This document shows, piece after piece, positions 1-44,423 of a DNA stretch of 64,000 bases (its first letter is position 1; every line of letters starts with the position of its first letter). Made by a program: the position numbers and the translations under genes. The notes under the pieces were generated by a model that saw only the letters and a list, made by a program, of their open reading frames with translations, made no database searches and was not told the origin of the DNA. The DNA comes from Escherichia coli (GTDB taxonomy: Bacteria > Pseudomonadota > Gammaproteobacteria > Enterobacterales > Enterobacteriaceae). The DNA is taken from the NCBI RefSeq assembly GCF_048403405.1, contig NZ_CP183129.1; one strand, written 5' to 3'.

Positions 1-1862
1 TGAATGGTGTCACGCCGCCAGCGGTGCAGCACCTGACCGCCGAAGTCACCGCAGACAGCGGGGAATATCAGGTGCTGGCGCGCTGGGACACGCCGAAGGT
101 GGTGAAGGGCGTGAGCTTCCTGCTCCGTCTGACCGTAACAGCGGATGACGGCAGTGAGCGGCTGGTCAGCACGGCCCGGACGGCGGAAACCACTTACCGC
201 TTCAGGCAGCTGGCGCTGGGGCGTTACACGCTGACGGTCCGGGCGGTAAATGCCCGGGGACAGCAGGGCGATCCGGCGTCGGTATCGTTCCGGATTAACG
301 CACCTGCAAAACCCGCCACCATTGAGCTGACGCCGGGGTATTTTCAGATAACGGCGGTCCCGCGTCTTGCGGTGTATGACCCGACGGTACAGTTTGAATT
401 CTGGTTCTCAGAAAAACGCATCACGAACACAGCACAGGTGGAAAAATCTGCCCGTTATCTGGGGACCGGCAGTCAGTGGACTGTCCAGGGGAGCCGGATT
501 AAGCCGGGGACGGATTTCTGGTTTTACGTGCGAAGCGTCAACCTGGTGGGAAAATCTGCTTTTGTGGAAGCCAGCGGGCAGCCCAGCAATGATGGTGAAG
601 GGTATCTGGAAATTTTCCGGGGGCTGATAGATGAGACGCTTCTGGGCCAGGCACTGAAAGAGCGCATTGATGCTTCAGCGCTGCGTACGGAGGTCACGCA
701 ACTGGAAGAAGACATCCGTCAGCGGATGGACACGGATATCGCAGAAGTGACCCGGAAAATCGGGAAGGCGGAAAACAGCCTCACGCAGCTGGTTGCGAAA
801 AAGAATGAGGACCAGACACTGGCCATCGCGCAGGTGAGCCAGAAAGTGGACCGGGTGAGCAGTGAAATCTCACAGACTGTCAGCCAGGGGCAGTCAGAAA
901 ACGCCCGACAGATAGCACAGGTCCGCCAGTACGTGGATAAAAAAGGGAGTGAAATTACCTCGACCACGGATAAAAAGCTGGGTGACCAGGCCGTGACCAT
1001 ACAGCAAATCCAGCGGGTTCAGTCAGACACGCGCAATGAGCTGAATGCCATGTATATGCTGAAGGTGCAGAAAACAAAAAACGGTATTCCCTATGTGGCC
1101 GGGATTGGCGCGGGGATTGAGGATGTTGATGGTCAGACCCTGAGTAACATTCTGCTGCAGGCCGATCGCATTGCGATGATTACCCCGGAGAACGGCAACA
1201 CCACGCCGCTGTTTGTGGCGCAGGGGAATCAGCTGTTCATGAACGACGTGTTCCTGAAGCGACTGTTTGCGGTGAGCATCACGTCATCCGGCAATCCTCC
1301 GACGTTTTCCCTGACGCCGGATGGCAGGCTGACAGCCCGCAATGCGGATATCAGTGGAGCCATCATGGCGAATACCGGCACGCTCAATAATGTCACCATT
1401 AACAAGAACTGTGTCATCAGAGGGAAACTGTCTGCAAACCAGATTGAAGGCGATCTCGTTAAAACAGTGGGTAAGGCTTTCCCTCGTGACTCCCGTGCAC
1501 CGAAGCGTTGGCCATCAGGAACCATTACCGTCAGGGTTTATGACGATCAGCCGTTTAACCGGCAGATTGTTATTCCGGCGGTGGCTTTCAGCGGTGCCAG
1601 ACATGAGCGGGAGAACAGCGATACTTATTCGTCATGCCGCCTGATAGTGAAGAAAAACGGTGCTGAAATTTATAACCGTACCGCGATGGATAATACGCTG
1701 GTTTACAGTGGTGTTATTGATATGCCTGCTGGTCGCGGCGACATGACGCTGGAGTTTTCTGTATCAGCATGGTGGGTAAATGGCTGGTATCCCACAGCAA
1801 GTATCAGCGATTTGCTGGTTGTTGTGATGAAGAAAGCCACTGCAGGCATCACGATTAGCTGA
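1..1862 (+). CDS. J: Tail tip/host-specificity protein J, C-terminal part (5' end upstream of window)
   Basis: Open frame runs in from the window edge (track ORF 24..1862); translation resembles lambda gpJ-family; followed by lom. Confidence 0.85.
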
Positions 1863-1881
1863 ATTTTATAACCCATATACG

Positions 1882-1906
1882 GGCGCCAGAAATGGCGCCT
1901 TTTTTA
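1882..1906 (+). terminator. Intrinsic terminator after J
   Basis: GC hairpin GGCGCC-N6-GGCGCC followed by a T-run. Confidence 0.6.
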
Positions 1907-1929
1907 TTGCAGAAAAGCGAGAGGTAATT

Positions 1930-2529
1930 ATGCGTAAATTATGTGCAGCCATTTTGTCCGCAGCCATCTGTCTGTCCGTATCCGGTGCGCCTGCATGGGC
2001 GTCTGAACATCAGTCCACACTGAGCGCGGGGTATCTTCATGCCCGTACGAACGCTCCCGGCAGCGATAATCTGAACGGGATTAACGTGAAATACCGTTAT
2101 GAGTTTACGGACGCGCTGGGGCTGATTACGTCCTTCAGTTATGCCAATGCTGAGGATGAGCAAAAAACGCACTACAGCGATACCCGCTGGCATGAAGATT
2201 CCGTGCGTAACCGCTGGTTCAGCGTGATGGCGGGGCCGTCTGTACGCGTGAATGAATGGTTCAGCGCGTATGCGATGGTGGGTGTGGCTTACAGCCGTGT
2301 GTCGACTTTCTCCGGGGATTATCTCCGCGTAACTGACAACAAGGGGAAAACGCACGATGTGCTGACCGGAAGTGATGACGGTCGCCACAGCAACACGTCT
2401 CTGGCGTGGGGGGCTGGCGTGCAGTTTAACCCGACCGAATCCGTAACCATTGACCTTGCTTATGAAGGTTCCGGTAGTGGCGACTGGCGAACGGATGCAT
2501 TTATTGTTGGTATCGGATACCGTTTCTGA
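1930..2529 (+). CDS. lom: Lom/Ail/PagC-family outer-membrane protein (phage moron)
   Basis: 199 aa with N-terminal signal peptide; INVKYRYE and C-terminal YEGSGSGDWRTD..GYRF motifs as in lambda Lom. Confidence 0.9.
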   Translation: MRKLCAAILSAAICLSVSGAPAWASEHQSTLSAGYLHARTNAPGSDNLNGINVKYRYEFTDALGLITSFSYANAEDEQKTHYSDTRWHEDSVRNRWFSVMAGPSVRVNEWFSAYAMVGVAYSRVSTFSGDYLRVTDNKGKTHDVLTGSDDGRHSNTSLAWGAGVQFNPTESVTIDLAYEGSGSGDWRTDAFIVGIGYRF

Positions 2530-2635
2530 CAACAGACGCCGATTTATCTTCTGTAAATATTGTTATGATACGCAGGTTCATCCACCTTATGGGGTGAACT
2601 GCGTTTGAGGAAACGTAAAGTTACACTGTCCTGAA

Positions 2636-2667
2636 GCCCGTGGCGTCACTGCTGCGGGCTTTTTTTA
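2636..2667 (+). terminator. Intrinsic terminator after lom
   Basis: Hairpin AAGCCCG..CGGGCTT followed by TTTTTTT. Confidence 0.6.
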
Positions 2668-2680
2668 TTGGTGGAAAAGT

Positions 2681-5600
2681 ATGACAGTAAAAATTTCTGG
2701 CGTGCTTAAAGATGGCACAGGAAAACCAGTACAGAACTGCACCATTGTGCTGAAGGCCAGACGAACCAGCAGCACGGTGGTGGTGAACACGGTGGCCTCT
2801 GAAAATCCGGATGAAGCCGGACGTTACAGCATGGATGTTGAGCATGGCCAGTACAGCGTCACCCTGCTGGTTGAAGGTTTTCCGCCTTCACATGCCGGGA
2901 CCATTACCGTCTATGAAGGTTCCAGACCAGGTACGCTGAATGATTTTCTCGGTGCCATGACGGAGGATGATGTCCGACCGGAGGCACTGCGCCGCTTTGA
3001 GCAGATGGTGGAAGAGGTGTCACGTAACGCCTCCGCGGTTGCACAGAATACGGCAGCCGCGAAAAAATCAGCCAGCGATGCCAGTGCATCAGCCAGCGAG
3101 GCGGCAACTCATGCAACCGATGCTGCAGCCTCAGCACGTGCCGCCAGCACGTCAGCCGGACAGGCCGCGTCGTCGGCTCAGTCAGCGTCTTCCAGCGCAG
3201 GAACGGCATCGACAAAGGCCCGTGAAGCAGCAAAAAGTGCTGCTGCTGCAGAGTCATCAAAAAGCGCGGCAGCTACCAGCGCCAGTGCCGCGAAAACGTC
3301 AGAAACGAATGCCGCAGCATCACAAAAATCGGCAGCCACTTCTGCATCCACAGCGACCATGAAGGCGTCAGAAGCTGCCACCTCGGCACGGGGTGCGGCG
3401 GCCTCAAAAGAGGCAGCGAAATCTTCAGAAACGAATGCATCATCAAGTGCCAGTAGTGCAGCTTCCTCGGCAACGGCGGCAGGAAATTCCGCGAAGGCGG
3501 CAAAAACGTCCGAGACGAACGCTAAGTCTTCTGAAACAGCAGCGGGACAGAGCGCCTCAGCTGCGGCAGGTTCAAAAACAGCGGCTGCATTATCTGCCAG
3601 TGCCGCGTCAACAAGTGCCGGGCAGGCCTCAGCCAGTGCCACCGCCGCCGGAAAATCGGCAGAAAGCGCCGCATCATCCGCTTCAACAGCCACAACGAAG
3701 GCTGGCAAAGCCACTGAGCAAGCCACTGCAGCAGCGAGGTCTGCTTCTGCAGCAAAAACCTCTGAAACAAATGCAAAGACTTCAGCAGACAATGCTGCTT
3801 CCTCTAAGGCGGCAGCCGCATCGTCAGCCAGTTCAGCGGCGTCATCGGCATCATCTGCGTCTGCTTCAAAAGATGAGGCGACCAGACAAGCGTCAGCAGC
3901 GAAAGGTAGTGCCACGACAGCAACAACGAAAGCATCAGAGGCGGCAGGCAGTGCGACGGCTGCATCTCAGAGCAAAGTTGCTGCTGAATCCGCGGCAACG
4001 CGCGCCGAGACAGCAGCAAAACGGGCAGAGGATATTGCATCCGCCGTGGCGCTGGAGGATGCGAGCACGACGAAAAAGGGGATAGTACAGCTCAGCAGTG
4101 CAACAAACAGCACCAGTGAAAAGCTGGCGGCAACGCCAAAGGCAGTTAAAACTGTTAAAGATAGTTCAGTTCAAAAAACTGGCGACACAATGGGAGGGCA
4201 GTTAAAAATCAGCACGATAAATGCTCTTCGAATATTCAACCAAGCCTTTGGCCTTATTTTTAGGCGTTCCGAAGATCATCTTCATCTTATTCCGACTAAT
4301 GAAGGGGAGGGGGAAAATGGAGACATCGGTTCATTAAGACCATTCTCTATAAACTTAAGATCAGGGTTGGTGTCCATCGGTAATGGACTAAAAGTTGGTG
4401 GTAGTGTTACTGGTAATTTGACCGGAAACGCAGATACTGCGACCAAGATCAAGACAGCACGTAAGATTGGGGGCGTGGCATTTGATGGATCGGCAGATAT
4501 CAACTTGCCTGGAGTCAACGCTACCGGTAATCAAAACACTACAGGTAATGCTGCGACCGCCACGAAACTTCAGGCAGCCAGAACGATTAACGGTGTGTCA
4601 TTTGATGGTAGTGCAAATATCACATTGACCCCTTCAAATATTGGGGCATTGGCATTAACTGGAGGGACTCTTTCAGGTGGTTTAACTGCTGCTGGTGAGG
4701 TTATTTCAAGGTCAGCAAATGGTCTGCGTATTGCCTATGGCAACTATGGATTCTTTATCCGAAATGATGGATCAAACACATATTTTATGTTGACAGATTC
4801 GGGTAACAGTCTTGGTACGCACAATAGCTTAAGGCCGTTTATAATTAGTAACCATACTGGCAATGTTACAATTGCAACTAAATTAAACGCGAGTGGTGGT
4901 ATCACTGGATCTTTATCGGGTAATGCAAGCACAGCAACCAAATTGCAAACTGCAAGGACAATTAACGGCGTAAAATTTGACGGCTCGGCAAATATTGAAG
5001 CGTTTCCGCCAGGTGTTCCGCTGCCGTGGCCATCAGATACACCACCTGCAGGTTATGCGATCATGCAGGGGCAGACGTTTGATAAGGCAGCATATCCGAA
5101 ACTGGCTATTGCCTATCCTTCAGGTGTTATTCCAGATATGCGCGGCTGGACAATCAAGGGCAAACCCGCCAGTGGCCGGGCCGTATTGTCTCAGGAACAG
5201 GACGGCATAAAATCGCACACCCACAGCGCCAGCGCATCCAGTACGGATTTGGGGACGAAAACCACATCGTCGTTTGATTACGGCACTAAATCCACGAATA
5301 ACACCGGGGCGCATACGCACAGTCTGAGTGGCTCTACGGGGTCTGCCGGTGTTCATACTCATGGTAATGGTATTCGTTGGCCAGGAGGCGGCGGTTCTGC
5401 GTTAGCATTTTATGATGGCGGTGGGTTCACTTATGTCCAGAATTCACAGTATCAAGTAAGCCCGGAGACTTCTTCCTATAGATCGTATTATCAACGTATT
5501 CAGACACAGTCAGCAGGTGCTCATACCCACTCGCTGTCTGGTACTGCAGCAAGTTCTGGCGCACATGCACATACTGTAGGTATTGGTGCGCATACGCACT

Positions 5601-5707
5601 CCGTTGCGATTGGTTCACATGGACACACCATCACCGTTAACGCTGCGGGTAACGCGGAAAACACCGTCAAAAACATCGCATTTAACTATATTGTGAGGCT
5701 TGCATAA
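2681..5707 (+). CDS. stf: Side tail fibre protein
   Basis: 1008 aa; N-terminus [22 protein letters not shown] and C-terminus ..[11 protein letters not shown] match lambda Stf as recalled; stop overlaps tfa start (TAATG). Confidence 0.9.
3040..4060. repeat. GC-rich Ala/Ser-rich repetitive coding region inside stf with recurring AAKTSETNA units
   Basis: Near-identical DNA blocks (..aaaacgtcagaaacgaatgc..) recur at ~3293, 3418, 3498, 3751. Confidence 0.7.
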
Positions 5708-6291
5708 TGGCATTCAGAATGAGTGAACAAGCACGGACCATAAAAATTTATAATCTGCTGGCCGGAACTAATGAATTTATTGGTGAAGGTGACGCATATA
5801 TTCCGCCTCATACAGGTCTGCCAGCAAACAGTACCGATATTGCACCACCAGATATTCCTGCTGGCTTTGTGGCTGTTTTCAACAGTGATGAGGCATCGTG
5901 GCATCTCGTTGAAGACCATCGGGGGAAAACGGTTTATGACGTAGCGTCAGGGGACGAGTTATTTATTTCTGAACTCGGTCCGTTACCGGAAAATGTTACC
6001 TGGTTATCGCCGGAAGGGGAGTTTCAGAAGTGGAACGGCACAGCCTGGGTGAAGGATACGGAAGCAGAAAAACTGTTCCGGATCCGGGAGGCGGAAGAAA
6101 CAAAAAACAACCTGATGCAGGTAGCCAGTGAGCATATTGCGCCGCTTCAGGATGCTGCAGATCTGGAAATTGCAACGGAGGAAGAAACCTCATTGCTGGA
6201 AGCCTGGAAAAAGTATCGGGTGTTGCTGAACCGTGTTGATACATCAACTGCACCTGATATTGAGTGGCCTACGAACCCTGTCAGGGAGTAA
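5707..6291 (+). CDS. tfa: Tail fibre assembly protein
   Basis: 194 aa; [38 protein letters not shown] matches lambda Tfa as recalled. Confidence 0.9.
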
Positions 6292-6342
6292 TCATTGGGA
6301 TTATGCCGCAGCACGTCTTAAGCAAGAACGTGCTGCGGTTGG
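6131..6342 (+). repeat. Direct repeat copy 1: tfa 3' end plus downstream 11-bp-stem palindrome
   Basis: About 210 bp repeated at 7182..7391; last ~95 bp nearly identical by eye. Confidence 0.85.
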
Positions 6343-6345
6343 ATG

Positions 6346-7014
6346 CTATTTTTTCCCTGAAGCGGAAAACATTACTACAGTACCTTGAACCTTGGTTTTA
6401 ACATTCTCGAAATGCTCTGAGAGTATATGTGTTAAGCCTTCTTCGGAATCTTTTGTGTTTGAAAAGATGCCTTTCTGATTGTAAATGCGCATCAGTTTTT
6501 GACCGAAGCTATTGTGCACAACTCCATCGCCAAGAATTGTGGCTCCGTATAGAGTTCCATCGTCAGTTAAGGCCTGCGCCGCATTGCGTATTACACAGCT
6601 TTTTGTAGATATATTTCCAGGCAGGCAGTGAAGAAGGTAAAACATGGAAATGGAATCAAATTGACCATGTAACGCCGCGGGATAAGGTTCAAAAACATCA
6701 TGGCTAATTTTATGTTTAATTTTTGATTCCCCAGCCCTTGTAGATGCCGCGTTCAGGCTAGCTTCGTTCAAATCCATTAAAGATATCAGACTACTCTCAG
6801 GTACGTGAGTAAGGTAAAACCCAGTTCCAACACCAATATCCAGATGGTTGTTACCTACATGTTCCAGAAAGTGTGGAAGAAGGTGTTCCTTTGTAGGACA
6901 TCCCCATGCAAGCCGATTTGATACTCCCAAAACCCACCAGTCATAAAGCTTTAGGGTAAGTGGTGTGTAAATTTTAGCCCCATCATCTGTGTTTTTTTTC
7001 ATTGATTTCACCAT
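6346..7014 (-). CDS. Class I SAM-dependent methyltransferase, substrate unknown (prophage cargo gene)
   Basis: Rossmann motif I LDIGVGTG and downstream acidic residue (LMDLNE); AT-rich by eye; a second ATG 4 codons in (MKKNT, end 7002) has the better SD (GGTGA). Confidence 0.7.
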   Translation of the reverse strand: MVKSMKKNTDDGAKIYTPLTLKLYDWWVLGVSNRLAWGCPTKEHLLPHFLEHVGNNHLDIGVGTGFYLTHVPESSLISLMDLNEASLNAASTRAGESKIKHKISHDVFEPYPAALHGQFDSISMFYLLHCLPGNISTKSCVIRNAAQALTDDGTLYGATILGDGVVHNSFGQKLMRIYNQKGIFSNTKDSEEGLTHILSEHFENVKTKVQGTVVMFSASGKK

Positions 7015-7070
7015 GTTATAGTTTTATTTGTGAATTAAATCAATTATGGCGATGAATTACAAGGGGTTAA

Positions 7071-7340
7071 ATGCTGCCGCAGCATAGCGATATTGAAATA
7101 GCCTGGTATGCTTCGATACAGCAGGAGCCGAATGGCTGGAAGACCGTCACCACACAGTTCTACATCCAGGAATTCAGTGAGTATATTGCGCCACTGCAGG
7201 ATGCTGTAGATCTGGAAATCGCAACGGAGGAAGAAAGATCGTTGCTGGAGGCATGGAATAAATATCGGGTATTGTTGAATCGTGTTGATACATCAACTGC
7301 ACCTGATATTGAGTGGCCTGCAAATCCTGTCAGGGAGTAA
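7071..7340 (+). pseudogene. tfa remnant: C-terminal ~55 codons of a tail fibre assembly gene fused to an unrelated N-terminus
   Basis: C-terminal translation ..[51 protein letters not shown] parallels the Tfa C-terminus. Confidence 0.55.
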
Positions 7341-7391
7341 TCATTGGGATTATGCCGCAGCACGTCTTAAGCAAGAACGTGCTGCGGTTGG
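7182..7391 (+). repeat. Direct repeat copy 2 (see 6131..6342)
   Basis: Same sequence block including the palindrome CCGCAGCACGT-N11-ACGTGCTGCGG. Confidence 0.85.
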
Positions 7392-7455
7392 CTGGTGAAC
7401 TTTCGATAGTGCGAGTATTGAATGATTTCCAGCCGTTACCGATTTTACGTGTTAA

Positions 7456-7704
7456 TTAGTGAACAAACCACTCGTCAGCAGACTCCCAGGTATCTTTCAG
7501 AGTTTCCTGAACAAAAGTTTTAGCTGAATCTTTATCGGCGGTGCGCGTAACAGAAAGGCCATCGTTGCTGGTAGCTTTTACGATCACCTCTACATCGTCA
7601 TAACGTTTACTGATGCGTCGGGTTAATTCTTCCTTTAACGCATCCACAGCACCGGTTGGCATTTTAGTCATTTTTTCTTTGGCTATGCAGATTTCAATAC
7701 GCAT
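7456..7704 (-). CDS. DinI-like protein (SOS-inducible, prophage-encoded)
   Basis: 82 aa; MRIE..IAK...GA(V/I)DAL..EL.RRI and C-terminal [13 protein letters not shown] match the DinI family. Confidence 0.85.
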
Positions 7705-7719
7705 AAAAGTCCCTCTACA

Positions 7720-7735
7720 CTGTGTTTGTATACAG
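7720..7735 (-). promoter_or_regulatory. LexA box (SOS operator) ahead of the dinI-like gene
   Basis: CTGT-N8-ACAG (cactgtgtttgtatacagta) 16 bp upstream of the start codon. Confidence 0.75.
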
Positions 7736-7747
7736 TATCATTTTTAA

Positions 7748-7763
7748 CTGTATGGATAAACAG
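7748..7763 (-). promoter_or_regulatory. Second LexA box in tandem
   Basis: CTGT-atggataa-ACAG. Confidence 0.65.
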
Positions 7764-7790
7764 TGTCAAGGGTGAAGGAAAGTGATTTTT

Positions 7791-7849
7791 TGGGGCATGC
7801 ATGGGGCAAAAATATTTGTTGTGGGGCATTTTGGGGCATGATTGGGACA
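7791..7849. repeat. Array of four perfect and one degenerate TGGGGCA direct repeats near the prophage-host junction
   Basis: TGGGGCA at 7791, 7802, 7822, 7832; TTGGGACA at 7842. Confidence 0.8.
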
Positions 7850-7951
7850 CTTTGTTACATATGAACTTTGCCGATTTTTATATGACATGGAAATACAACG
7901 CTTTGATTCTTCTAAATAAAAAACATGCTCTTGGGCGTTCTTTAGTGATTT

Positions 7952-8062
7952 TTAAAAATTCCGTATCACGCAGTTAAAGTGGCGGGCATACTCTTCAAGG
8001 CTGGTGATCCCCAACCGCACCCATTTAGGATGCGACCATTGCGGCAGACCGATGTAAATCAT
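7952..8062 (-). pseudogene. yecE: Truncated yecE (first ~32 codons retained, then disrupted by the prophage)
   Basis: Minus-strand translation [32 protein letters not shown] then diverges and stops; ATG overlaps yecD stop (ATGA). Confidence 0.6.
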
Positions 8063-8640
8063 AATGCGTTGAGGATCTCTTCCACACTGCGCACACGGGC
8101 GATGCGTGGGTAGATATGGTTGATGCTGTTATTGTGCTGCTCGGCGCTGGCGGCGCTGCAGGCGTCTTCGGCAATCACCAGATTAAAACCGAGTTCCCAG
8201 GCATTGCGGGCGGTGGATTCAACACCGATATTGGTCGAGATCCCACATAATACTATTGTATCGATACCCCGGCGGCGTAATTGCAACTCCAGATCCGTAC
8301 CGTAAAACGCACCCCATTGATGTTTGATGATTTCGATATCGCTGTCGGTTGCACCTAATGCAGCAGGATGTTGCCACCAGTTTTCGGGTAACACTTTAGC
8401 AGGGGAGGGGACATCAACCGGCTGTTTTAATGCTTCGGCATAATCGGCAGACCAGCCAACGCGCACCAGAAACACGGGCTGACCGCTCGCGCGAAATTTC
8501 GCCGCCAGCTTCCCGGCGCGATTAACCACCTCATCGGCAGTATGTGGACCTCCGGCAAAAGGTAAGATGCCTTCTTGTAAATCAATCACCACCAGCGCAG
8601 TGGTTTTAGCATTAAGTTCAAGCATGATGACTCCTGACAA
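8059..8640 (-). CDS. yecD: Isochorismatase-family hydrolase YecD
   Basis: 193-aa ORF (K-12 form starts at MLELNAK, 8625); position next to aspS. Confidence 0.85.
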
Positions 8641-8934
8641 AACAAAATCGTGCCTCTCACCTTAATGCGATTAGCCGATGGCGGAACGACAAATTTTGTT
8701 AATTTTTATGAGTTCGGGCAACACCTTTATAGCAAACTGGCGTAGAGTCTGATTTCAGGCCCGATATAAAGTGGTAACGAGGTGTTCCAGCGCGGGCCAG
8801 GCTCTTACGGTGCGGCAGAATTTCCAGTATAATAGCCGCCTTTTTTCATTCAGTTGTGACATACAGCTAACGCTGCGACTTGGTCACCTGCGCAGCAGGG
8901 GGCATCCGCCGGCAGCTAAGTTAAGGGATATCTC

Positions 8935-41789: not shown

Positions 41790-44423
41790 TTATTTGGGCA
41801 GCGCAGTTCCCCATTCACGCCACTCTTTCGGTTCACTTTCCTGCAACAGGAAGTGCTTGCCTTCCTGGGCTTTCGGTGCCAGTGGCGTACCCGGAGGCGT
41901 GGCGAAGGCGATGCCGCCACGGATAAACTGGTTAAAGGTGCCGGTTTTCACTACGCCGCCCGTCAGACCAAAGTCCAGACTATAACCCGATGCCAACCAG
42001 AAGACGGAATTGTTACGCACCAGGTGTTGATAGCGTTTACTGATGCGCATCGCAATCATCACGCGATCTGACAATGTCCCCAGCGTCATACCTGTAACCG
42101 TACCGACTTCCAGACCACGGAACAGCACAGGTGTACCGATGCCTAACGAACCGGCTTCCGGCGCTTCAACAATAATGCTCAAGCCATCCAGGTAACGCGA
42201 ATCAGTAATGGTAGCCTCTTGTAATTCAAAGTCGCGCCGAGGATTGCCCCGGCCTGGTTCGACGTTGATATACGGCTGGAGGATAGTATCAAGATGCTCA
42301 ACGCCAGCTGCCGAAATTTGCGGTGTGACCACTGAGAAGCGCGTACCACCGCGAGCAAAGGTCTGGACATATTCCGGATAGAGCACCGCCTTTGCCTGTA
42401 CTTCATTGCGCGCGGTAATCAGATCCAGCGTCTGGATTTGCCCGATATCAATACCGAGATAGCGAATTGGCATCCCGACCGCCAGTTTTCCGGCATCGAA
42501 AGCGTGAAGCGTAATCTGCCCGCCAACCGCACGGGCTGCTGTTTCGGAAGCATACAGAATACGCTTGTCGCCTTTACGCTGACTGGCGCTGGCACCGCTG
42601 AGGTTATCGAAGCTAATAGCCCCCTTTAATGCTCTGGAGAGCGGGGATGCCTGTACAGTCAGACCACTACCATTCAGCTGAACTTTCGCCCCACCTTCTG
42701 CCCAGAACACGCTGTTGCTGGTCAGAAGGTTGCGATACTCCGGCTTAATATGCAGATCGATATCAAACGCGTTAGCTCGCGGACGCACGGTAATAACTTC
42801 ACCAACTTCAAATTTACGGTACAGCACTACCGATCCTGCCTGCACATCCGGCAGCGTCTCTGCACTCAAACTCACGGTTGTGGTGGGTAAATCGCTAAGG
42901 CTGTTCTCCAGCGCTTTTTCCAGATTGGCATACAGTGGATAGCTGGCTTTCATCTCGCCTTTATCGCCTGGCAGAATACGTATCCCGCCGTTAATCCATT
43001 CTGAGGCGCTGGCACCAAGAAACTCAACGCCATCCAGCCCCACCTTCACGTCGACACGGCTGTTGACGACAAATTTGCTATCGCCTTTTACCAGTTCGCG
43101 ATGCTGAGGCTCGATGGCGACGGTAAAGGTAACGCCTTTGCTGGTGAGTTTACGATCAATAACCTGGCCTACCTGCACGCCGTGAAGAATGAGCGGCTGA
43201 CCAGCATCAATGCCGTAACTTTCTGGTGCTGTCAGGGTCAGTGTCAGAACATCCGGCTCTTGTAGCAGGGCTTTTTCACCTGGCACAACAACGAACTCTT
43301 TGCGTGGCTCGCCATCGCCGGGCACCAACTCAAAGGTTTTTCCGGTCAGCAGGGCGCTGAGATTGGCATCGCTAAGGGATAATTTCGGGTTGCGTAATTC
43401 GATGCGGGTATTTTCACGAAGCAGGGTGACGACGCTGGGATCAACGGTCATTTCCCCAGTGACTTTACCACCAGGATTTAAATCCAGTTTAGTCAGCTGT
43501 CCGACTTCCAGCCCCTGATACATTAACGGCGTCGAGTCGGCGGTTAATCCGGCCCCACTCGGCAGTTCCAGTTTGATTATTACGCCACGCTGGCTATGGG
43601 CCAGGTCTTCATACAGACCAAAGGTATCTTCCGCCTCGGCAGGTTTCGACTCTTCTGGTGAATCGAAGGCAATCGCACCGTTAACCAGTGCCGCCAGACT
43701 TTCCAGTTTCACCTTCGCGCCACTGATACTGACGTTGGCATCAACGCCGGAAACGTTCCAGAAACGGCTACCTTTTTTCACCAGGTCGGTAAAACGCCGC
43801 TCGATCAGGACATCAATCACCACGCCTTGCTTGTTGGGATTGATGGCATAGTCGTAGACTTTTCCCACCGGGATCTTACGGAAATAGACCAATGAACCGC
43901 TGTTCAGTGAACCGAGATCGGGGGCTTGCAGGTGGATCATCAGATCGCCATTGTCCAGCCGATATTTCGGTTGGGTATCGAGTGCGACAAAGTGATCCTG
44001 CTCTTTACCTTTACCTGGCATCATGCCGATATAGTTACCACCGACGAGGGCATCCAGCCCGGAGACACCTGCCAGCGAGGCCTTTGGCGTCACCAGCCAG
44101 AACTGTGTCTCTTCGCGCAGCGCATCTTTCATATCGGACTTGATGCTGACCTTGACTTCAATCTTACGAAGATCGTCGCTCAGGCTGATATCCTGCACAG
44201 TTCCGACTTCAACGCCCTGATAACGAACAGGCGTACGGCCTGGAACAATACCATCCGCCGACATAAAGTCGATGGTGACGGTATTACCCCGGTCCTGATA
44301 ACTATCCCAAATCAGCCAACCGGCAATCATTAGCGCGATGAATGGCAGCAGCCAGAAAGGTGAGATACGGCGTTTATTTTTAATCTGCGCTTCAGTCGTC
44401 GAAGCGGGCGTTTCCTGACTCAT
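41790..44423 (-). CDS. letB: Multi-MCE-domain lipid transport protein LetB (YebT)
   Basis: 877 aa from MSQETPAST; N-terminal TM helix then repeated MCE domains. Confidence 0.9.

Follow-up and report, generated by a model that had tools for sequence, protein, structure and literature searches.

Phased TGGGGCA repeats in the attR of a yecE prophage as candidate integrase arm-type sites

A lambdoid prophage inserted in the Escherichia coli yecE gene carries, at its right end, a cluster of five short direct repeats, and sequence comparison makes it very probable that these are P-arm arm-type binding sites of the prophage's own heterobivalent tyrosine integrase, a protein of 437 aa. The repeats lie in the window, by which we mean the whole stretch of 64,000 nucleotides that was analysed (contig NZ_CP183129.1 of assembly GCF_048403405.1). 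An earlier note had proposed that they serve in attR as sites for either the integrase or the excisionase; our results favour the first option and disfavour the second. Int is preferred over Xis because the motif is found on both arms, because Int has an arm-DNA-binding domain, and because phage P22 shares the layout with an unrelated Xis. An array of this kind is an ordinary and expected part of a temperate phage and holds no surprise for a specialist.

Positions 1 to approximately 7966 of the window are the right end of the prophage, which encodes J, lom, tail-fibre genes, a SAM methyltransferase and a dinI-like gene; yecD, aspS and more host genes lie on the host side beyond the junction. 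Comparison with the uninterrupted yecE of K-12 placed the attR core, or crossover region, CACGCAGTTAA, at 7967-7977, followed by a 5′ fragment of host yecE on the minus strand (7978-8062). The core is common to attB (K-12 yecE) and attR, and the attL copy has one C/T difference. The dinI-like gene (7456-7704, minus strand) has its promoter at 7720-7769 on the same strand, with a −35 TTGACA at 7769-7764 and LexA boxes at 7720-7735 and 7748-7763. This promoter is a neighbour outside att, and an equivalent LexA site is annotated in the phi80 record. The repeat array lies in non-coding DNA, with dinI on one side and the junction on the other, at −176 to −118 relative to the core, and its near end is 21 bp upstream of the dinI −35. 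It had been placed between the dinI promoter and the yecE breakpoint, approximately 110-170 bp from the prophage-host junction, and both statements hold, the measured distance from the core being 118-176 bp.

Two further observations concern the prophage right end. The class I SAM-dependent methyltransferase gene (6346-7014, minus strand) is flanked by two tail-fibre-assembly gene 3′ ends, at 5707-6291 and 7071-7340, the C-terminal peptides of which are near-identical, and the methyltransferase gene within 5707-7340 has the look of a moron acquired by recombination. The best complete-genome matches cover 91% of window positions 1-9000 because the tail-fibre/methyltransferase region is mosaic; the roughly 9% that the three closest complete genomes lack is possibly the methyltransferase insertion. 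The other observation, at 7355-7386 (plus strand), is a resemblance to the Rfam sRNA family CssrB (RF02799) that stays below threshold, with 36 bits against a gathering score of 76; it covers the last 32 model positions only and is probably a shared hairpin.

The plus strand across the array reads tTGGGGCAtgcaTGGGGCAaaaatatttgttgTGGGGCAtttTGGGGCAtgatTGGGACA. Candidate arm-type sites 1 and 2, exact copies of TGGGGCA at 7791-7797 and 7802-7808, make up the distal pair of the P arm; sites 3 and 4, at 7822-7828 and 7832-7838, are also exact, and site 5, at 7843-7849, is the one-mismatch copy TGGGACA. All five are on the plus strand, and the four perfect repeats and one degenerate repeat described previously were thus confirmed. 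The start-to-start steps are 11, 20, 10 and 11 bp, so that the earlier list of spacings (11, 20, 10 and 10 bp) stands for the first three and needs correction in the last. Because the steps add up to 52 bp, or approximately five helical turns, all five sites fall on one face of the helix, and one helical "slot" within the array is empty.

TGGGGCA has no overall excess in the 64-kb window (11 copies, 9.0 expected). Among the 7-mers of the window, it alone has at least four non-overlapping same-strand copies inside 60 bp. When the sequence was shuffled 200 times with dinucleotide composition preserved, the maximum was three copies per 60 bp in 62 shuffles and two in 138, and four copies were seen in none of the 200. 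The five copies are thus clustered beyond chance, less than approximately 200 bp from the crossover, and their motif, TGGG(G/A)CA, is unrelated to the core CACGCAGTTAA. The array shows the properties that characterize arm-type sites: a clustered non-core motif, its presence on both arms, an N-terminal domain of Int for binding it, and conservation with the int lineage.

The window holds attR only, and attL was read in the close relatives NZ_CP071002.1 and NZ_CP142949.1. The attR sequence in the closest complete genomes is 99.7-100% identical to that of the window, the integrase and excisionase genes are at the other prophage end, and all of these genomes encode the same integrase, WP_000362005.1 (437 aa). 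The earlier note had suggested looking for the heptamer near the other prophage end and regarded its absence from the opposite attachment site as evidence against its proposal; the heptamer is present there, as the pair TGGGGCAtcatTGGGACA, at attL of the closest genomes. This P′ pair is oriented like the attR copies, is 75-92 bp away from the core (+75/+86), and is contained within the last 25 codons of int (42243-42260 in locus L004, from NZ_CP071002.1). Sites 4 and 5 of attR form an 18-bp module identical to the P′ pair at 17 of 18 positions (repeat family D2). A 48-kb stretch with the whole prophage contains 13 TGGGRCA sites, seven of them in the two arms, and phased TGGGRCA pairs occur in it at attR and attL only, the chance of even one such pair in the stretch being 0.007.

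All 64 distinct int 3′ ends taken from IMG/VR also have the P′ pair. The Int relatives in that collection are all at least 78% identical (78-100%), and most of the contigs end at the int stop codon; they are therefore informative for the P′ footprint and not for P arms. Of the 14 positions in the two heptamers, 12 show little or no variation among the 64 ends; what variation there is falls at the G/A position, with one single exception. Mean entropy is highest in the 4-bp spacer (0.97 bit), lower in the flanks (0.44) and lowest in the heptamers (0.12). The peptide encoded over the pair varies, with 19 variants recorded (VPMMPH, APLMPH, APQMPQ etc.). Since the pair lies inside int and encodes a C-terminal peptide, the DNA sites constrain the tail of the protein. 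The peptide over the pair is VPMMPHS in the prophage studied here and VPNMSHS in P22.

Int itself matches the Pfam family Arm-DNA-bind_2 (PF12167) at residues 7-70 (E=2.4e-23), and the Phage_integrase catalytic domain lies behind this N-terminal arm-DNA-binding domain. An AF2 model of residues 1-81 showed a three-stranded sheet and a helix (beta3+alpha) with a pLDDT of 84. Fold searches with the model returned weakly supportive matches, and a sequence search of solved structures with Int matched the catalytic domain alone. A 78-aa excisionase (WP_000528718.1) is encoded beside int. The int gene and the attR arm are identical in the inducible phage record PhiR49_2, and the module therefore belongs to a live phage.

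An alignment was made of eight yecE-type P arms, namely those of the window, P-EibC, four IMG/VR prophage ends, and the fossils in phi80 and PPompW. The heptamers are kept across the aligned arms, and the spacers and the left flank diverge. Site 2 of P-EibC is TGGGACA. Site 3 has been removed from the phi80 relic and from two other loci, L128 and L154, by an exact 10-bp deletion that keeps the helical phase. The heptamers of the disused PPompW fossil are decaying (TGGAACG, TAGGGCA, TGGGACG). Fossil attR copies, composed of dinI, the array, the core and a 5′ yecE fragment, are carried by phi80, PPompW, mEp237 and CharmingMan; the phi80 copy is at approximately 2950-3180 of JX871397.1 (L002) and the PPompW copy at 1225-1450 of LC567824.1 (L012). 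The phi80 record annotates the yecE fragment as a DUF72 pseudogene, approximately 1.2 kb from the real attP of phi80, and the PPompW fossil is the integration site of an Stx2a phage.

Of 5426 complete E. coli genomes, 835 have the phage-only part of the P arm (7770-7966), at no less than 90% identity in 240 and at 60-80% in 595, including many O157:H7; the yecE-type att module is very common in E. coli. The same yecE integration site is the subject of Nakamura et al. 2021 (PMC8112680), which treats short att (core) sequences and in the main text of which the word "arm" is absent; the fossil attR copies described above fit the attB-in-prophage idea given there. Our literature search found no paper describing arm-type sites for the yecE/wrbA/yehV integrase family, and no binding or recombination experiment on these attR repeats.

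The same motif accompanies homologous integrases that act on other targets. YYZ-2008 (Int 73% identical) has a different core, CACGCGCGTAACGTGACAGGG, near btsS/yehU in the yehV region, with P-arm sites at −143, −132 and −121 and P′ sites at +74 and +85. VT2-Sakai (Int 68%), which integrates at wrbA, has P sites at −170, −159, −139 and −128, in the same 11-20-11 pattern as the window array, and P′ sites at +71 and +82. PHB10 (Int 44%, target unknown) has three copies of TAGGGGCA and one AAGGGCA in its P arm, a similar three-plus-one arrangement, and two copies of TAGGGGCA in P′. The PHB10 P′ pair is located just outside the int stop codon and, being beyond the int frame, shows that the pair is not kept by coding constraint alone. 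P22 (Int 26%), which integrates at a tRNA gene, has TGGGACA at −132 and −121 in the P arm and again at +87 and +98 inside int (21386-21404 of L010). The sites of each of these phages are all on one strand, and P array and P′ pair lie approximately 180-200 bp apart in YYZ-2008, VT2-Sakai, PHB10, P22 and the yecE type. Motif, phasing and two-arm layout are therefore kept across homologous Ints of different core specificity. The best-conserved part of the YYZ-2008, VT2-Sakai and yecE-type Ints is the arm-binding domain, at 81-91% identity compared with 62-71% for the core-binding domain, so that a constant arm-binding domain and a diverged core-binding domain parallel a constant arm motif with changing cores.

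P22 provides the closest parallel among the better-known systems. Its attP resembles the yecE type in that the heptamer is the TGGGACA of site 5 and in that it has same-strand pairs phased at 11 bp, one of them inside int. The P22 P arm differs from the yecE-type arm in having two clear copies and one partial copy instead of five, and the two systems also differ in their Xis proteins, which are unrelated, and in their targets, a tRNA gene and the protein-coding yecE, respectively. Profile alignment identified P22 Int as a distant full-length homologue (hhalign probability 98%). P22 Int gave no match to PF12167, and the P22 link therefore rests on the profile alignment and the site layout. The attP of P22 is cited as fully characterised (Smith-Mungo, Chan and Landy 1994, J Biol Chem 269:20798). 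The P22 Int arm sites footprinted in 1994 are reportedly these same TGGGACA copies.

The attP of lambda has short non-core repeats in both arms (P1, P2 and P′1-P′3), 50-180 bp from the crossover, and IHF sites between these and the core. The repeats are bound by the N-terminal domain of the heterobivalent Int, and integration and excision use different subsets of them (PMC2951348). The yecE-type att would follow the same arm-site logic. The sequence of the lambda arm sites, C/AAGTCACTAT, is unrelated to TGGG(G/A)CA. Lambda has two sites in P and three in P′, whereas the yecE type has five and two, all in the same orientation, and the arm-binding domain of lambda Int is in a different Pfam family. 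As with lambda and HK022, the yecE, yehV-region and wrbA Ints share an arm motif and differ in their cores; unlike that pair, they represent at least three specificities, in prophages that are able to share one cell (e.g. in O157:H7). KplE1 IntS was also considered for comparison and was dropped, as its motif differs (TAAA). By analogy, the system appears to work like lambda and, more closely, like the attP of P22.

One alternative is that the repeats bind not Int but the excisionase, the recombination directionality factor, with a head-to-tail polymer of Xis bending attR for excision. The Xis proteins of lambda and P22 do use phased direct repeats in the P arm, which is the kind of repeat seen here, and the 78-aa excisionase encoded beside int has homologues that travel with the same Int family. 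Xis sites would, however, normally be present in one arm, and the heptamers recur in the P′ arm at attL; P22 shares the motif layout, yet its Xis is unrelated. Repeats that bind Xis would be confined to one arm and would co-vary with the Xis family, and the array does neither. There are, moreover, better candidates for Xis sites nearer the core, in the 10-bp-phased repeats within 7859-7887 and 7916-7958. We therefore regard this alternative as very unlikely.

These core-proximal sequences belong to two conserved blocks between the array and the core. Block A, ATATGAACTTTGCCGATTTTTATATGACA (7859-7887), is kept across yecE-type P arms, and block B (..CATGCTCTTGGGCGTTCTTTAGTGATTTTTAAAA, 7916-7958), which adjoins the core, is an invariant stretch of the yecE-type alignment and has direct half-repeats, TCTTGGGCG and TCTTTAGTG, phased at 10 bp. 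A sequence like block B adjoins the different cores of YYZ-2008 and VT2-Sakai as well. Because the blocks are conserved and the Xis proteins of yecE-type, YYZ-2008 and VT2-Sakai phages are homologous to one another, we take block B as a candidate Xis site and block A as a candidate site for an accessory protein, Xis or other. Block A contains part of a direct repeat (D3), the other copy of which is at 7940-7954. The repeats CTTTGCCGATTTTTA and CTTTAGTGATTTTTA, at 7866-7880 and 7940-7954, are 74 bp apart and fall in both conserved P-arm blocks; they could possibly be sites for Xis or another accessory protein. The sequence AGTGATTTTT occurs on either side of the arm, at 7781-7790 and 7944-7953, and YYZ-2008 has TCGTCGA-type repeats in corresponding places.

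A match to the IHF consensus lies between the two blocks. The minus-strand sequence AATCAAAGCGTTG at 7896-7908 agrees perfectly with the consensus WATCAANNNNTTR, has an A/T-rich tract upstream, and is approximately 59-71 bp from the core; it is predicted to bend the DNA between array and core. A further match to the consensus, with one mismatch, is at +30, and one-mismatch matches occur at similar positions in YYZ-2008 and VT2-Sakai.

Another alternative is that the array has nothing to do with recombination and serves the LexA-regulated dinI promoter as an operator or as an activating, UP-like element upstream of it, or is a site for another transcription factor. The position of the array 21 bp upstream of the dinI −35 would suit such a role, and the same adjacency of dinI and array is found in YYZ-2008. 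Against this, the array is present without an adjoining dinI in VT2-Sakai, PHB10 and P22, the second cluster lies at a fixed distance beyond the core, inside int, and it is the distance of the array to the core, not to dinI, that is constant. The neighbour of the array differs between phages, being dinI, a hypothetical gene, an SOS-response peptidase or gtrA, so that it is int and the core, not dinI, that the array accompanies. A role as operator is for these reasons extremely unlikely. It is possible that occupancy by Int has a secondary effect on dinI transcription, given that the promoter is 21 bp away.

There is next to no likelihood that the repeats are iterons or a partition site, repeats of a 58-aa ORF (7801-7977), or a chance cluster. 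Short phased direct repeats do look iteron-like, but the neighbourhood has no gene for replication or partition, the replication genes of the phage being approximately 30 kb away on its map, and the array is not beside or inside an initiator gene or an AT-rich origin. The iteron and operator roles that the earlier note had left standing as alternatives are thus disfavoured, in that the array travels with int and the core and not with dinI or a replication gene. Some RefSeq annotations place a "hypothetical protein" over the array region. The 58-aa ORF was rejected as coding, as L129 and L130 lack its ATG and its frame is broken by 10-bp indels in three relatives, and a chance cluster was ruled out by the result of 0/200 shuffles and by conservation in other phages. 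A search of Rfam returned no RNA family in the array.

If the repeats are integrase arm-type sites, the reaction may be envisioned as follows. The small N-terminal domain of each Int protomer would bind the heptamers of both arms, and the core-binding and catalytic domains would hold inverted core-type sites at the crossover. IHF-type bends, at the consensus matches near −65 and +30, would fold the arms back toward the core, so that single Int protomers could bridge arm and core and the intasome would be assembled. The two sub-clusters, sites 1-2 and sites 3-5, are probably used in different reactions, integration and Xis-dependent excision, a division for which P1 and P2 of lambda are a precedent. 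In the lysogen, excision would draw on the attR array together with the attL P′ pair and Xis; the free phage would have the seven sites together in one attP of approximately 270 bp.

A broader hypothesis is that a (T/A)GGG(G/A)CA pair, phased at 11 bp and located within or next to the 3′ end of int, together with a phased array of three to five copies across the core at a distance of approximately 190-200 bp, constitutes an ancient "arm code". We advance it tentatively, since we hold it to be slightly more doubtful than probable. Tyrosine integrases of a very large clade may have such a code in common, among them those of P22, the Shiga-toxin phages and metagenomic phages, the latter with G+C contents of 35-70% and Ints 22-27% identical. 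IMG/VR was scanned for GGGGCA-N(4-7)-GGGGCA-N(12-16)-GGGGCA, so that contigs were chosen by the array alone; many matches were tandem GGGGCA hexamers in coding sequence or chance occurrences in GC-rich contigs, and these were filtered out. A second phased GGGRCA pair was found 100-300 bp from the array at a frequency of 0.30 per kb, compared with 0.0028 per kb elsewhere, an approximately 100-fold difference. Four contigs, L145, L151, L122 and L138, have a phased GGGGCA pair at the 3′ end of int and a phased array approximately 150-250 bp away, and both clusters adjoin a tyrosine integrase gene that is 22-27% identical; a tRNA-like segment lies between the two clusters in L145, L151 and L122. 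The bipartite layout occupies 5300-5800 in L145, 600-1200 in L151, 800-1400 in L122 and 1-520 in L138, and the G+C content is approximately 47-70%. These preliminary results suggest that the heptamer and the two-arm layout could be far older and wider than the enterobacterial clade.

Arm-type sites belong to the textbook picture of lambda-type site-specific recombination, and the value of the array is practical. It yields an arm-site consensus, (A/T)TGGG(G/A)CA with 10-11-bp phasing, and a map of att comprising five P sites, two P′ sites, the core and the candidate IHF and Xis sites. Consensus and map would apply to an integrase family that includes those of Shiga-toxin phages at wrbA, yehV and yecE. 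The map helps in setting prophage boundaries and in recognising fossil att sites, and it defines a minimal attP for integration vectors or for tests of interference between co-resident prophages through shared arm sites. If the arm code is real, it would provide a sequence signature for finding attP sites and prophage ends, and the wrbA, yehV and yecE phages that reside together in EHEC could cross-bind each other's arms.
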